From NCBI RefSeq assembly GCF_001677475.2, contig NZ_CP012498.1: DNA of 64,000 nucleotides. One strand, 5' to 3'. Made by a program: the position numbers. Shown piece by piece: positions 24,027 through 30,000 of the stretch. The stretch's first letter is position 1; every line of letters begins with the position of its first letter. Source of the DNA: Escherichia coli. GTDB lineage: Bacteria > Pseudomonadota > Gammaproteobacteria > Enterobacterales > Enterobacteriaceae.

Positions 24027-27000
24027 TAAATGTCAGGCTCCGTTATACACAGCCAGTCTGCAGCCATGGTACCGGCAGTGTATTCTGCCGGACAGTCTCC
24101 ACAACTTCCTGTTGTCATTGATTATCCGGCAGCTCTGGCACTTCGCCAGATGTCGATGGTCCATGATGAACTGCCGAAATATCTGCTGGCTCTGGAAGTG
24201 AGTGCCCTGCTCCATTACGTCCGGATCTGCGCCGCAAGATGCTGCTGGCCACACTGTGGAACACCGGTGCGCGCATTAATGAAGCACTGGCGCTGACACG
24301 GGGGGATTTTTCGCTCGTGCCTCCGTATCCGTTTGTGCAGCTTGCGACCCTGAAACAACGGACCGAAAAGACAGCCAGAACGGCAGGAAGATCGCCGGCC
24401 GGTAAGCAGACTCACCGGCTGGTTCCGCTCTCTGATGCCTGGTACGTCAGCCAGCCGCAGACGATGGTGGCAACACTGAAAATCCCCATGGAGCGGCGTA
24501 ACCGTCGCACCGGCAGAACAGAGAAAGTGAGGATCTGGGAAGTGACGGACAGAACAGTCAGGACCTGGATTGGGGAAGCGGTTGCCGCCGCTGCTGCTGA
24601 CGGTGTGACGTTCTCTGTTCCTGTCACACCACATACATTCCGCCACTCCTATGCGATGCATATGCTGTATGCCGGTATTCCACTGAAGGTCCTGCAGAGC
24701 CTGATGGGGCATAAGTCCATCAGCTCAACAGAGGTCTACACGAAGGTGTTTGCACTGGATGTGGCTGTACGGCACCGGGTGCAGTTTGCGATGCCTGAGT
24801 CCGATGCAGTGTCTATGCTCAAAAGAATTCCTTAAGTTCTGACTTTTTTAAATCCCTTTCGGATATCTCATGGATATATTATCGGTATTTCATATTCTGT
24901 TGACATGCCGGACTGGTATAGAGTAAAAAAACATCTGTTGAGTACCTCTTGGATATCCGAAAGATGTCTTTGGGGTTCTTTATGGGTATTACATTTGGAT
25001 TCTGGAGATACACTATGCCTGTTATTGCTAATACGCATCCCAAAGGTGGTGTGGGTAAGACAACTTCATCCGTAAACATTGTTGGTGAAATGAAGTCTGA
25101 TACAGTTGATCTGGATACTCATACTGGGCTTTCTATCATTCTGGGGCTGAGACCTGAAGGAAAAGAAATTTCCGTGAAAGTACCCAAAACAGTGGATGAG
25201 TTAATCGAAATTATGACTCCCTACAAGAACAGCGATAAGACGTTACTTATTGACTGTGGGGGATTTGACTCAGATCTTACCCGTACTGCGATTGCCTTTG
25301 CAGACTGCGTTATTGTCCCTTCAAAAGATTCCCTGACTGAGCGTATTGGTTTGATGCATTTTGATGGAGTACTGGACGAAATCAGCTCTATCATGGGGAC
25401 CGATATAATTGCTCACCTGTATCTCTGTAAAGTTAATCCTAACAAGAAGAAATTCCCTAAGCTTGATGCAATCCTGCCATCGTTCAAACATCTGAAGCTG
25501 ATGAAGAGCCGCATTTCTGCTCGTGCAGAATTTGAGGATGTCATTGAGACTGGGATGGGAATCACTGAGTCTGTTCATGGGCGCTATTCGGCAGGAGGTA
25601 AGGAAGTTATTGCCCTGATCGAAGAAATCAATCATCTGATTGAAAATAATAAACAGTAAGGTATATCAATTGGGTATCCATATAGTATCCTTTAGGCTTT
25701 TAATAGATATCTTTTGAGTATCTAACAAACATCCTGGGTTATCTCATGAGCAAAGCGAAATTTAGTGCACAGGCTGAAAAACTGAAAAACCTGGTGGATT
25801 CTGCCAGATTACAAACTTCTTCTTCTGCCGTAATAGCAACAGTCCCGTCTCAGCCAAATGAAGGTGCAGAGGAAGTTTCAGGTCGTCCCGTAGCTGCCAG
25901 GACGAAGGCTAAGAATCTTAAGGCCATACCGCTGTCGTATTTTGAAGCTCATGCGGAACTTAAAGCGACCAGTAAAACATCTCTGGATTTTAGCTCATAT
26001 ATTATTGAGGCTATAAGAGAGAAGCTTGAACGTGACGGTGCAATAGGTCAATAATTCATAGGATACCTTTAGGGTATCTGATGGGTGTCTTTTAAATGCG
26101 TTATGGGGATTCTTCAGGTACCTAAAGAGTCCTCATTAGACATCTTTCTGTATATGGTGACATGATTCGTCACCGCTTTCCTTTCCTCTCAGTTTCACCA
26201 TTTCATTCCTTTTCCCTTAACCTGAACCATGATGTCAAAGATGTTTTTATATTGCATTTATGTATCACATATAACCTTCATAATATTTTTGTATCTATGA
26301 TTTCCTCTGGTCTTAAAGTTGTGTGTACAATATACATGCAATTTATCGTGTTTTTATGTTGCATTTGTCCTTTCAGAAAGACCATTTTTTCATTATAATT
26401 GAATATAAATTGTATGTATGAAGTATGTTTGTTTTTTCTATTTGTTTATGAGCAACGGAGACTGGTTATGAAAATCTTTATTGATGATGGTTCTACCAAC
26501 ATTAAACTTGCCTGGTTGGAGGATGGTGACGTGAAAACGCTAATCAGCCCTAACAGCTTTAAACCGGAATGGTCTTTTAGTTTACTGGATGATGCTGCCC
26601 CGGCTAATTACGAGATCGACGGCGAGAAGTTTTCATTTGATCCATTAAGTGCTGATGCTGTCGTAACGACTGAAACACGCTATCAGTACAGTGATGTGAA
26701 TGTTGTGGCCATTCAGCATGCGCTACAGCAGACCGGCCTGAAAGCGCAGCCTGTTGATGTCATCGTCACATTGCCGATCTCTGAATACCTTGACGCCAAC
26801 AATCAGAAAAATAAGCAAAACATTGAAAGAAAGAAAAAAAATGTGATGCGTGAAGTACGGGTGCAGGGGAGTGATGCATTTGTTATTCGCAGTGTTTCCG
26901 TTCTTCCTGAAAGTATTCCCGCTGGTTTCAGTGTTCTTGCGGGGCTTGAGGATGATGAATCCCTTTTGATCGTAGATCTCGGTGGTACAACTCTTGATGT

Positions 27001-30000
27001 GTCGCATGTTCGTAGCAAAATGACAGGGATTACAAAAACCTGGTGTGATCCGAATATCGGCGTGTCCCTGATTACATCCGGGGTTAAGGAACAGATGGCT
27101 GTACATGCTAATACAAGAGTGAGCTCATTCCAGGCTGACAATATCATTGTGCACCGTAATGAACCTGACTACCTTTCCCGTCGCATTTATAATGCTGAAC
27201 AGCGTGAGTCTATCATTAATGTTATCAATGAACGGCAGAAGTTGCTTATTAAACGAGTTAATGATGTCATCAGCCGTTTCACCGACTATACACATGTAAT
27301 GTGTGTTGGTGGTGGGGCTGAAATTGTGGCCGAGGCTGTGAAGAACCTGACTAGGGTTCCTGATAAGCGCTTTTATCTGAGCTCATCCCCGCAGTTTGAT
27401 TTAGTCATGGGAATGATAAAAATGAAAGGTGGTGTGATTAATGAGTGATGAAAATAAATCCAGACGCTGCTCATTTGAACTTTTCCCGGATGAACGGACA
27501 GGAGATAAGATAGCAGATGAGCTCATTGCAAATGAAAAACTGAAGGAGCGAGGACGTTTCATGCGCGCGATGTTAGTTACTGGTGCGGCGTTTGCAGCTA
27601 TAGATAAACGTCTTCCTTTGCTGATATCGGAGTTACTGACAGAAAATACGACTCTGGATGATATTAATAAGGTGATTTCCAGCGTAATACCAGGTGCTTT
27701 TTCGGTTGAAAAGAAATTGCTTGAATTACTGGAAAAACAATCTGGTCTCCATACGTCTGTGGATTGTAGTGCTCCTCTTACAGAGCAGAGCCTGGCGAGA
27801 AATGACGGTGAAGACCAGACCAGAAGAAACGCTGAAAATATGTTCGGAGATGACTGAACTAACCCAGCCTGGCCAGGGGAATATCTCGCCATTTAGTTGT
27901 ATAACACTGACTCAACATTTCCCGTTTCATTTGCCATTCAGGGGCGGTTCCTCGCCCCGCAAACCACACTTTCCCTTTTCCCGACTGGTTCAGTTCATCG
28001 AGTGTTTTCATTAACTTTTCACTGTTTTTACGGGGCTGGATTTCATCAAATAATCCCGGCTGCGCTATACCCGATGGTGTGAAATCAGCCAGCATGACTC
28101 CTGCCTTCATATAGCGGTACCCTTCACGCCAGACATGGTTTAACGCTCTGCATGCTGCGGCAATAATGTCCCGGCTGTCCTGTGTGGGGAATGGAAGCTT
28201 TTCCACAGCGGCATTGCTGTAACAGGGGGCTTTCACTGCAAAGGGTGACGTTCATATAAATGTCGCCACCTGCCGGCAATACTGACGCTCCCCACGTAGT
28301 TTCTCTGCGGCCCGCTCTGCATACTGAACAACAGCCTGGTGCATGGCATCTTTGTCTGTGATTCGTTCACCAAAACTGCGACTACAGACAATCTGCTGTT
28401 TTGCCGGTGGTGCTTCTTCCAGGGATATGCAGGACTCGCCGTTGAGTTCGCGTACCGTACGCTCAAGAATGACGCTGAAGTTTTTCCGGATGAATGCCGT
28501 GTTCGCCTGCGCCAGCTGCAGTGCTGTGTTAATACCCAGCGCATTCAGCTTTTCCGTCAGTCTGCGTCCTGTTCCCCAGACCTCACCAACTGGCTGCAGC
28601 CCCAGTAGCTTCAAGATCCGATTACGGTTTTCTGTTGTCAGCGCGACCACACCGGAAAACTGCGGCCATTGCTTTGTTGCCCACTGTGCACTTTTAGCCA
28701 GCGTTTTTGTAGGCGCAATGCCCACCCCCATGGTGAGTGTTCCCTGAGCTGATGACCAAAAACCTCCGGAGAGATGCAATGATTTATCCCCCGCAAATCA
28801 ATGAATCGCCCCGGTTTTCCTGGAGAATGTTTTATCTGTGCACACGGATACTGGGTGTAAAAGAGTTCGGGTGTGATAACCCGGACTGTCATCACGTAAA
28901 GTACCTGACCTGCTCATGCGGCAGCCGTGCCTGCCCGTCCTGCGGAAAGACGGCAACAGACCTGATCTTACCCAGCAATAGTGGACACGCAGCTAAGTGA
29001 GTAAACTTTCAGTCAGAGGTGACTCACATGACAAAAACAGTATCAACCAGCAAAAAAACACGTAAACAGCATTCGCCTGAATTTCGCAGTGAAGCCCTGA
29101 AGTATTCAGGTCACTTACAGTACCACTCACTCTCATGTATACATATATATGAAATTACAATTTCAATGATATATATCATAAAAACCTATGTCAGATTAAG
29201 TTATAATCTTACTCTAAAGTTCAGAAATAAACATGGAAAACATACAGATAAATATGGAAAATATATTTAAGTTTTCTCAAACTGAATTCATAAAGTCTCA
29301 ACATACAGACAGAAGCATATATAATGGATTATGTTTTTTTATGTGTATTGATTATATATATAACAAATTAAACGACATAAAGTGTGATTTCATTTTTTTT
29401 AGCAAGACATATGCATTTTCCTCAAGATACAGAGGAATGTTACTTGCATATGAAAGCGGAACCATTAAAGACCCATACTTAATAAAAAACGGAAAGATAC
29501 ACCTAAAAAAATAAAAGGGGATGTAAATCCTGTTGAACTCTATAATATAAAGGATGATTCTTATATTATTAATTTATCTCTTTCAAATGGTACAATGTCA
29601 CATACTACAGCATTTATAAAAAATGGTCGGCATTCTTTATTCTTTGATCCAAATTTTGGTGAATATCTTGTAGGAAATAAGATGGAGCTTATAAACTTTT
29701 TAAAACAGAAATATAAAGGTTATTATAATTTAGATAATATATCACTATATTCGGCTAAATCCATTGATGGACGGAGAATACTGAACAGTAACTGTTGACG
29801 GCAATCACATAGTTTCAGCTTGGCTGACGTCGATATTCCCTTGGTGGAGCCTGTACATAGATTTGTGTAATTGCCTGATTTTGATATGTTCAATCCAGCA
29901 TCAAATGAAGGTTAATTTATGGACGAAAAACAGTTACAGGCTCTGGCTAACGAACTGGCCAAAAACCTCAAAACCCCTGAAGACCTCAGTCAGTTTGATC

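Follow-up and report, generated by a model that had tools for sequence, protein, structure and literature searches.

The window, meaning the whole 64,000-nucleotide stretch of Escherichia coli contig NZ_CP012498.1 analysed here, carries three partition gene sets, as an earlier note on this DNA had proposed. Pfam profiles resolve them into two ParM/ParR pairs and one ParA-type pair, yefA-yegA, and the ParA/ParM profile matches on which the proposal depended were found; all six partition proteins except YegA match a Pfam family. Two gene bounds are each corrected by 3 nt (25012 to 25015 and 52439 to 52442), and the others stand as first given. The two ParM/ParR systems are of an ordinary kind; the ParA-type one is common and apparently unstudied.

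The first ParM/ParR pair lies on the plus strand. ParM1 (26468-27448; parA in R64 naming) is an actin-like ATPase matching StbA_N (E = 5e-82), the ParM C-terminal domain (7e-72) and the R1 ParM structures (2e-103), and is followed by the adaptor ParR1 (27441-27857; parB in R64 naming), with matches to Plasmid_stab_B (8e-28) and to pB171 ParR (2JD3, 2e-6). The second pair, on the minus strand, consists of ParM2 (51480-52442; StbA_N, 3e-77; R1 ParM, 2e-80), whose 320-aa start was set by the annotated homologue in NZ_CP012500, and ParR2 (51085-51480; Plasmid_stab_B, 3e-27; 2JD3, 4e-19). Both ParMs match StbA_N and the ParM C-terminal domain at E-values of 1e-65 to 1e-82, and in both pairs parR overlaps or abuts parM directly at its 3' side. 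By profile and gene order, both pairs are therefore classed as type II ParMRC genes, an actin-like ParM followed by ParR. Between the copies, identity is 39% for ParM1/ParM2 and 28% for ParR1/ParR2.

In plasmid R1, parC is made of 11-bp iterons flanking the promoter. Both window ParMRs resemble R1 ParMRC in their ParM match (E = 1e-80 to 1e-103) and in the Plasmid_stab_B match of ParR, and candidate iterons may flank a promoter 5' of parM. The candidate parC of ParM1 (26176-26467, plus) encloses a candidate promoter TTCAGA-16-TATAAT at 26372-26399, two direct repeats of 18-20 nt (26242 and 26349) and the inverted pair ATACATGCAATTTAT/ATAAATTGTATGTAT; its support is weak, with poorly defined iterons and a lag-11 autocorrelation of z = 2.9. 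For ParM2, the candidate parC (52443-52640, minus) has GAGNC/AACTC units, 10-12 bp apart, on either side of TTGACA (52555-52550). The repeats that the earlier note saw here are backed by a lag-10 autocorrelation peak (z 3.8) and by an enrichment of GAGAC (four copies within 208 bp where 0.1 would be expected; P = 3e-6, uncorrected for 1,024 pentamers), a support weaker than that for the yefA-yegA arrays. As the upstream repeats differ, the ParM1 and ParM2 systems should be separate specificity types.

The ParA-type pair begins with yefA (25015-25659, plus), whose ATG start follows a GGAG Shine-Dalgarno sequence located 7 nt upstream. Its 214-aa product is matched by the Pfam families AAA_31 (35.7 bits), MipZ (26.3 bits) and CbiA, the first two scores each exceeding the cut-off. 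YefA has the features of type Ib ATPases: a length within ~200-220 aa, no N-terminal DNA-binding domain, a deviant Walker A motif (KGGVGKTT, residues 10-17) and a Walker B motif (LLIDCGG). Across eight YefA homologues, K10, G11, G12, G14, K15, T17, D80, C81 and G83 are invariant. The NCBIfam model ParA_partition (NF041546) aligns over its full length (protein 3-203 on profile 1-202) at a score of 52 bits, below its cut-off of 180 bits. Judged by these motifs and alignments, YefA is a divergent ParA. ParA-like genes of other E. coli, Moraxella and Acinetobacter plasmids are 25-29% identical to YefA, indicating that small ParA ATPases are strongly diverged from each other. Upstream of yefA, a candidate promoter TTGACA-N18-TAAAAA can be read at 24900-24929 (plus), which a consensus promoter scan missed because TAAAAA lacks the T that the scan demands as sixth base of the -10 hexamer. 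Identical hexamers at identical spacing, flanked by repeats, recur in two diverged loci, L003 and L011.

The second gene, yegA (25746-26054, plus), encodes a 102-aa protein, predicted to be a ribbon-helix-helix centromere-binding protein. YegA has no match in Pfam, NCBIfam or PDB sequences, and no significant sequence similarity to ParG, pESBL ParB or any PDB chain. When its C-terminal domain is predicted as a dimer, the best structural matches are the single-chain ribbon-helix-helix proteins Arc and TraY. The N-terminal peptide of YegA is conserved, and its linker, probably disordered, is variable. In annotation, YegA is frequently named 'molecular chaperone GroEL', and no family model exists for it.

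Around and between these two genes, a position weight matrix (PWM) maps about 27 repeat units with the consensus TGGRTATCT and a spacing of 10-12 bp, grouped in three arrays (all plus), of which A has about 11 units and B and C about 8 each. Array A has a distal part of three units 5' of the -35 hexamer (24860-24890; matches at 24860, 24871 and 24882, 11 bp apart) and a proximal part of ~8 units running across the 5' leader to the start codon (24929-25014; matches at 24929-25006, 10-12 bp apart; lag-11 autocorrelation z = 4.6). As in type Ib loci, short-repeat arrays thus lie beside the operon, with the yefA promoter inside array A. Array B (25658-25745) fills the 86-bp gap between yefA and yegA with ~8 units, and no convincing sigma-70 promoter was seen in it. 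Array C (26060-26146) holds ~8 units 3' of yegA, of which the 3' units are apparently inverted, giving a palindromic arrangement about GGTACC at 26117. A terminator-like hairpin (26155-26175, plus), with a 7-pair stem followed by CTTTCCTTTC, closes the unit.

The earlier note had pointed to GGATATC-type repeats near the ParA-like gene, and these are not a product of chance. All three arrays (24860-25014, 25658-25745 and 26060-26146) show an autocorrelation peak at lag 11 or 22 (z 3.1-4.6 against shuffles). Moreover, when every 90-bp segment of the 64 kb is scored for periodicity at 11/22 bp with no motif given, the segments at 26058 (array C) and 25664 (array B) rank 1 and 2 of 63,880, and that at 24929 (array A) ranks seventh among non-overlapping peaks. 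For the hexamer GRTAYC, a motif picked post hoc, 347 bp contain seven copies where 0.30 would be expected (Poisson P = 3e-8). Tandem Repeats Finder reports no array, since the units are too degenerate for it.

Conservation in homologous loci further supports the suggestion that these repeats are candidate centromere/operator arrays of the ParA-type system. Arrays in the upstream and gap positions are kept in seven diverged loci (L003, L004, L005, L009, L011, L013 and L016), at 74-83% ParA identity and also at 38-45%, where the motif has changed. In L003, and likewise in L011, the PWM trained on the window finds 16 matches per ~375 bp of sequence between genes, at spacings that are multiples of ~11; this is ~17 times the background of 0.25 matches per 100 bp in the window (coding sequences, ~0.3 per 100 bp). 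In the two furthest of six loci, the motif is GGAWTCC (L004) and TGTACA (L005), and the predicted beta-strand of the partner, LKAIPLSY, becomes LKAIPTTY and IPNLPCSY, respectively. The motif and the predicted DNA-contacting strand thus appear to co-vary, in a comparison of only three motif classes. L003 retains arrays 3' of the pair with no ParMR coming next, and second downstream arrays are found in L003 and L011. The gene context of the pair points the same way: a tyrosine recombinase is encoded upstream in L003, L004, L009, L011, L012 and L013, and Rep3 replication genes adjoin the pair in L009, L011 and L012. No ParMR was found within the examined stretch of L003, L004, L005, L009, L013 or L016, so a pair of the yefA-yegA type may be the only partition system nearby.

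The yefA-yegA locus lies in a 4.7-kb IncI1/R64-type stability block (24102-28805, plus) that comprises most of resD, yefA, yegA, ParM, ParR and a 3' fragment of impB. This block aligns with the IncI-gamma/K1 plasmid LC567050 in a single blastn alignment of 4,725 columns at 96.8% identity, and the annotated gene order there, in R64-style names, is resD-yefA-yegA-parA(ParM)-parB(ParR)-impB. Its boundaries fall within resD and within impB. The resD gene itself (24030-24835, plus), a tyrosine recombinase with XerD/XerC-type NCBIfam matches, is frameshifted into two ORFs, as it lacks one nucleotide near 24221 that IncI-type resD has. The ParA-type locus and the adjoining ParMR were therefore not acquired independently of each other; the type Ib locus stands directly 5' of a classical type II ParMRC (26176-27857), and both appear to have arrived together. 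The pair is also widespread, as yefA-yegA occurs on more than 1,100 sequenced enterobacterial plasmids. The IncI1, IncF and related plasmids that carry it, over a thousand of them, come from E. coli, Salmonella, Shigella and Klebsiella. ParMR adjoins some 96% of the near-identical copies, and ~1,075 PLSDB plasmids have at least 80% of the 3-kb yefA-yegA plus ParMR pair together.

The surroundings of the block belong to an IS-rich, F-like virulence plasmid, which has its own, different ParMRC (51085-52640, minus); the genes of this second ParMR (51085-52442) are of the type found beside F leading-region genes. The nearest plasmid records carry ehx and ST toxin genes, type as IncFIA+IncFIB and hold both MOBF and MOBP relaxases. 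From the alignment, yefA-yegA-parM-parR is one IncI1/R64-type block that was evidently recombined into this F-like plasmid. The sequence comparison therefore supports a mosaic ancestry through recombination, the part of the earlier 'cointegrate or multi-replicon ancestry' that holds; a cointegrate as such was not demonstrated, because the 64-kb window contains no rep gene or replicon.

By architecture, the window can be likened to the double par locus of pB171, in which a type II system (par1, ParMRC) also lies beside a type Ib system (par2, parC1-parA-parB-parC2). Like yefA-yegA, par2 encodes a small ParA of ~214 aa and a small ParB, which Ringgaard et al. reportedly described in 2007 as an RHH protein. 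The pB171 par loci are divergent and have parC1 in common, whereas the window loci are co-directional and lack a common central centromere region; moreover, yefA-yegA has a third array between the ATPase and adaptor genes. The arrays of par2 lie both 5' of the operon, overlapping its promoter, and 3' of it (PMC4270457; discussion in PMC7602700). An array between the two genes is shared with the delta/omega system of pSM19035 (parS1-3), in which the ATPase gene and the RHH gene each have a promoter overlapped by a parS array, these arrays act as operator and centromere, and in which the unstructured N-terminal tail of the RHH adaptor contacts the ATPase (PMC3074150).

The type Ib ParA/ParB/parS system of the IncI1 plasmid pESBL, which stabilises mini-F, forms foci and binds repeats (Daniel et al. 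2020, PMC7602700), is found at the corresponding site of the backbone, beside impCAB. A small ParA and a ParB of 100 aa that shows no known motifs are its proteins, and its arrays lie 5' and 3' (PMC7602700). An assignment of yefA-yegA to this ParABS type was rejected, as the ParAs are 24% identical and the ParBs share no detectable similarity. Furthermore, parA and parB of pESBL overlap, whereas a gap separates yefA and yegA, and in pESBL 8-bp GATAACAA units follow one another without spacers, whereas the YegA-array units stand 11 bp apart, a spacing that resembles that of R1 parC. TP228 ParF/ParG likewise combines a small ParA-type ATPase with an RHH adaptor bearing a flexible N-terminal tail (ParG, 1P94), although the YegA family has no profile similarity to ParG. 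In TP228, parH is a short-repeat array at the promoter, found only upstream, in which 4-bp boxes alternate with 4-bp spacers, and the ParG tail stimulates the ATPase.

Taken by analogy with these systems, the segment 24860-26175 is probably a type Ib partition locus working like pB171 par2 and pSM19035 delta/omega. A mechanism can be proposed on the model of pB171 par2, TP228 ParFG and delta/omega. YegA dimers would bind ~8 sites per array co-operatively through the C-terminal ribbon-helix-helix domain, the TGGRTATCT sites being one helical turn apart. Array A has units on both sides of the yefA promoter and along the leader, so its occupation would auto-repress the operon. Array B may overlap a further promoter that serves yegA, as delta/omega has one for its adaptor gene, or may be a roadblock tuning the ATPase/adaptor ratio. 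Arrays A, B and C together would form the partition complex, in which the YegA N-terminal peptide, carried on the variable disordered linker, would stimulate the ATPase of nucleoid-bound YefA-ATP, so that plasmids would be positioned by a diffusion-ratchet and stabilised.

A competing explanation, which we consider unlikely, holds that the arrays are transcriptional operators only, that YegA is an RHH repressor, and that the locus is regulatory or a relic with little or no segregation role beside ParMRC. The position of array A at the promoter and leader would suit an operator, the adjoining ParMR present beside most near-identical copies could bear the entire partition load and leave yefA-yegA redundant, and no experiment on yefA/yegA or a close homologue was found in the literature. 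However, an operator function does not explain array C, past the last gene and before the terminator, nor the second downstream arrays of L003 and L011, and six loci have no ParMR in the examined stretch that could take over. The conserved ParA ATPase motifs imply a motor function, and known type Ib arrays double as operator and centromere (PMC7602700, PMC3074150).

It is less probable still that the repeats bind another protein, be it ResD at a multimer-resolution site, a replication initiator at iterons, or a host nucleoid protein. Array A does start 25 bp past the resD stop codon, a tyrosine recombinase gene lies 5' in most homologues (L003, L004, L009, L011, L012 and L013), and the yefA promoter lies between the arms of a perfect inverted repeat of 12 bp, CTTTCGGATATC/GATATCCGAAAG. 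Nevertheless, arrays are present in L005 and L016, where no recombinase was seen within the examined stretch, and they are intact here beside a frameshifted resD; three ~8-unit arrays at 11-bp spacing are unlike a 28-30-bp Xer-type core site, the window has no rep gene, and the motif changes along with the predicted DNA-reading strand of the small partner. Finally, the notion that AT-rich intergenic sequence produced the repeats by chance could draw on the silence of Tandem Repeats Finder, the degenerate units and the post hoc choice of GRTAYC, but it is already refuted, leaving it a negligible probability: the scan that ranks two arrays first and second is motif-free, the PWM recovers arrays in independent loci, and array positions are kept even at the lowest ParA identities.

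The type Ib reading stays conceptually inside the known scheme, and the gain is chiefly better annotation and a tractable model rather than a new principle. A bolder version, put forward only tentatively, is that yefA-yegA represents an unstudied type Ib family with a tripartite centromere embracing the operon, that its internal array sets the ATPase:adaptor ratio, either as a second operator or as a roadblock exerting feedback, and that the 11-bp spacing might let a type I adaptor build a one-faced or ring-shaped complex like that of ParR/parC. Partition loci govern the inheritance stability of large virulence and resistance plasmids and which plasmids coexist. The three defined arrays are ready probes for binding, stability and incompatibility, and with its type I and type II systems in tandem the block is a natural example in which to ask why plasmids retain both. 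The papers that name yefA merely list it, and one of them files it under 'site-specific recombination'.

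Three partition gene sets, one of ParA type and two of ParMR type, are present in the window, as an earlier note had claimed and as Pfam and structure matches bear out. On the plus strand, ORF listing and sequence place ccdA (23492-23722), ccdB (23724-24029) and the tyrosine recombinase gene resD (24030-24835) ahead of a ParA-like gene, yefA (25015-25659, 214 aa), and the gene of its small partner, yegA (25746-26054, 102 aa). These are followed, on the same strand and the same basis, by the genes of ParM1 (26468-27448) and ParR1 (27441-27857), and then by a truncated impB/umuC gene on the minus strand, encoding a DNA polymerase V subunit (27859-28805, where the IncI-block homology stops). 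The second pair, ParR2 (51085-51480) and ParM2 (51480-52442), lies on the minus strand. Both ParM proteins match Pfam StbA_N and the ParM C-terminal domain (E 1e-65 to 1e-82) as well as the solved structure of R1 ParM (E 2e-103 for ParM1, 2e-80 for ParM2). Likewise, both ParR proteins match Pfam Plasmid_stab_B (E about 1e-27) and the pB171 ParR structure 2JD3 (E 2e-6 for ParR1, 4e-19 for ParR2). The ParMs are 39% and the ParRs 28% identical to each other, and the two pairs should therefore represent distinct specificity types. Both ParMRC loci are ordinary.

YefA matches Pfam AAA_31, MipZ and CbiA. No variation occurs among 8 homologues in its KGGVGKTT motif (residues 10-17) or in the aspartate of the Walker B sequence LLIDCGG. 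Its sole PDB sequence match is a weak one to Soj (E 9e-4), and it scores 52 bits on NCBIfam ParA_partition against a cut-off of 180 bits; YefA is thus a divergent ParA. For the partner, YegA, searches of Pfam, NCBIfam and PDB (the last by phmmer and by two profiles, of 16 and 61 sequences) gave no sequence match. Its family is small, with 76 cluster representatives at E <=1e-3 among 1.84 billion proteins, mostly of 70-120 aa. In family alignments a short peptide is conserved at the N-terminus, the linker is variable and of low complexity, and the C-terminal 45 residues are conserved, with a strand, helix, G-x-T loop, helix pattern, in which the strand reads K-x-L-x-x-I/V-P-x-x-Y/F and the last helix Y-I-x-E-A-x-R-E-K-L-E-R-D. 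In NCBI records the name 'molecular chaperone GroEL' is very often attached to YegA and related proteins. As no similarity of YegA to GroEL is apparent, the name looks like a propagated annotation error.

The earlier note had placed GGATATC-type repeats upstream of yefA (array A), in the yefA-yegA gap (array B) and downstream of yegA (array C), and the statistics substantiate all three. Autocorrelation peaks at lag 11 or 22 in each array (z 3.1-4.6 against shuffles). Moreover, in a motif-free scan of all 90-bp windows across the 64 kb, scored by their excess of identity at lag 11 and lag 22, the best two of 63,880 begin at 26058, after yegA, and at 25664, in the gene gap, and the upstream array (24929) forms the seventh non-overlapping peak. 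The motif GRTAYC, picked post hoc, occurs 7 times in 347 bp against 0.30 expected (P = 3e-8). An iterated position weight matrix (PWM) delineates about 27 units of consensus TGGRTATCT, spaced 10-12 bp apart: three in a distal part of array A (24860-24890), eight in its proximal part (24929 to the yefA start codon), eight in array B, which fills the 86-bp gap (25658-25745), and eight in array C (26060-26146), after which a terminator-like hairpin follows (26155-26175). When 48-nt blocks of the three arrays are aligned in register they share 60-71% identity, as if each array were a diverged copy of the others. Tandem Repeats Finder reported no arrays in the three intergenic regions or upstream of ParM2 because the units are too degenerate; the three arrays do emerge from autocorrelation and PWM scans. 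A PWM trained on array B alone is modestly enriched in arrays A and C, and the motif-free scan is the more decisive of the two. Taken together, a tripartite set of putative binding arrays at this locus is well supported.

A candidate promoter, TTGACA-N18-TAAAAA (24900-24929), lies between the distal and proximal parts of array A and is kept in the window, in a Klebsiella IncFII plasmid (L003) and in a Pectobacterium locus (L011). A perfect 12-bp inverted repeat, CTTTCGGATATC / GATATCCGAAAG (24856-24867 and 24952-24963, 84 bp apart), brackets this promoter and could loop the two parts of array A together.

The locus is widespread. At least 80% of the 3-kb segment spanning yefA-yegA and ParMR is carried by 1,075 PLSDB plasmids, and at least 80% of the ParA-plus-partner part by 1,120. 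Diverged homologues were found in the Klebsiella plasmid, Kosakonia (L009), Pectobacterium (L011 and L012), a metagenome contig (L013), an Enterobacter plasmid (L004, 45% ParA identity), an Aeromonas plasmid (L005, 38%) and a more distant contig (L016). All those examined keep the upstream array and an array in the 61-99-bp gap between parA and the small gene, and most retain one or two downstream arrays. In the intergenic DNA of L003 the window-only PWM finds 16 sites within about 375 bp, and the same holds for L011, at spacings that are multiples of about 11, against a background of 0.25 per 100 bp in the window and about 0.3 per 100 bp in the coding regions of L003 and L011. Additionally, a second downstream array lies beyond the first at 3690-3779 in L003 and at 2965-3048 in L011, which would bring the number there to four; the window has no counterpart after the terminator hairpin. 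The repeat unit changes to GGAWTCC in L004 and to TGTACA in L005, and the predicted DNA-reading strand of the small partner changes from LKAIPLSY to LKAIPTTY and IPNLPCSY, respectively. Such co-variation, seen in three motif classes only, is what a repeat-reading role of the small protein would predict.

No ParMR adjoins the pair in the stretch examined of L003, L004, L005, L009, L013 and L016, which assigns the arrays to the ParA system rather than to ParMR. The anatomy is best explained as that of a type Ib partition locus: a small ParA, a small partner of two domains with a predicted ribbon-helix-helix-like fold, and arrays on either side of the promoter and of the operon. Array B is the locus's least usual feature; it may serve as a second operator/promoter or as a roadblock, and the gap has no clear promoter (none of sigma-70 type by consensus scan).

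ParG sites have an 8-bp period, unlike the arrays of the window, whose 11-bp spacing resembles that of the 11-bp iterons of R1 parC. In addition, hhalign finds the YegA family without similarity to ParG or to pESBL ParB. The pESBL locus, the one IncI1 type Ib system characterised by experiment (Daniel et al. 2020, PMC7602700), shares its backbone position beside impCAB with the window's locus. Identity with that system was nevertheless rejected, since its ParA is 24% identical, its ParB shows no significant similarity, its genes overlap, and its repeats are contiguous GATAACAA octamers of 8 bp rather than units spaced at 11 bp. The nearest working analogues are pB171 par2, arranged as parC1-parA-parB-parC2 and adjoining a ParMRC locus (PMC4270457), and the delta/omega system of pSM19035, with arrays over the promoters of the ATPase and adaptor genes, though omega binds contiguous 7-bp heptads (PMC3074150). 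The literature found on yefA/yegA and R64 partition holds annotation-level mentions only, with no paper testing these genes; the locus, common and wrongly annotated, is an apparently uncharacterised member of type Ib. An unrelated 92-kb E. coli plasmid (L006, NZ_CP116996.1 88632-91149) has a different kind of double par locus with type II and type Ib in tandem: there parM-parR leads directly into a further small ParA gene, whose product shares 29% identity with YefA, and an overlapping gene for a 95-aa partner.

For the ParMRC loci, candidate centromeres are less sharply drawn. The repeats noticed earlier upstream of the second ParM gene, which Tandem Repeats Finder missed, hold up moderately well: GAGNC/AACTC units, spaced 10-12 bp, flank a TTGACA, and 208 bp contain 4 copies of GAGAC where 0.1 would be expected. 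This moderately supported pattern fits an R1-like candidate parC. Upstream of ParM1 there is a good candidate promoter, TTCAGA-16-TATAAT (26372-26399), with a few 15-20-nt direct and inverted repeats and poorly defined iterons.

The stretch 24102-28805 aligns as a single block, at 96.8% identity, to an IncI-gamma/K1 plasmid annotated resD-yefA-yegA-parA-parB-impB in R64 style, and the ends of the block fall inside resD and impB. Compared with the IncI type, resD has a 1-nt deletion near 24221 that gives two ORFs, and roughly its first 75 nt, which abut ccdB of an F-type ccdAB, bear no relation to that type. The resolvase gene is thus chimeric, and probably inactive, and the deletion may be a sequencing error. 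Several IS3-family transposase genes (about 30.8 to 41.2 kb) lie in the 23 kb between the par regions. The closest records are large E. coli virulence plasmids with ehx and ST toxin genes, typed IncFIA+IncFIB and bearing both MOBF and MOBP relaxases. Judged from these block ends, the F-type ccdAB, the transposases and the IncFIA+IncFIB virulence relatives, the plasmid is a mosaic that has taken up a stability block of IncI type. In 364 plasmids the ParM2/ParR2 type lies next to F leading-region genes. The cointegrate or multi-replicon ancestry suggested in the earlier note thus stands as a mosaic; a cointegrate is not demonstrated, as the 64-kb window holds no replicon. The earlier note's interpretation as a whole was largely right; yefA-yegA and ParM1/ParR1, two of the three, came in jointly as an inherited pair.

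Three large ORFs at 14196-20820 (1003, 705 and 479 aa) are collinear with the enterohaemolysin genes ehxA, ehxB and ehxD of NZ_CP012500, the closest plasmid, which also carries heat-stable enterotoxin genes; the window would therefore come from an STEC/ETEC-type virulence plasmid. Among unannotated ORFs between the par regions, those at 41762-42592 and 47493-48155 may be defence or accessory genes, one being HEPN RiboL-PSP-like (a match of 25.9 bits, below the 28.4-bit cut-off) and the other a DUF6710 protein. Furthermore, the minus strand at 61421-63085 encodes the reverse transcriptase/maturase of a group II intron, which has RVT_N, RVT_1, GIIM and HNH domains.
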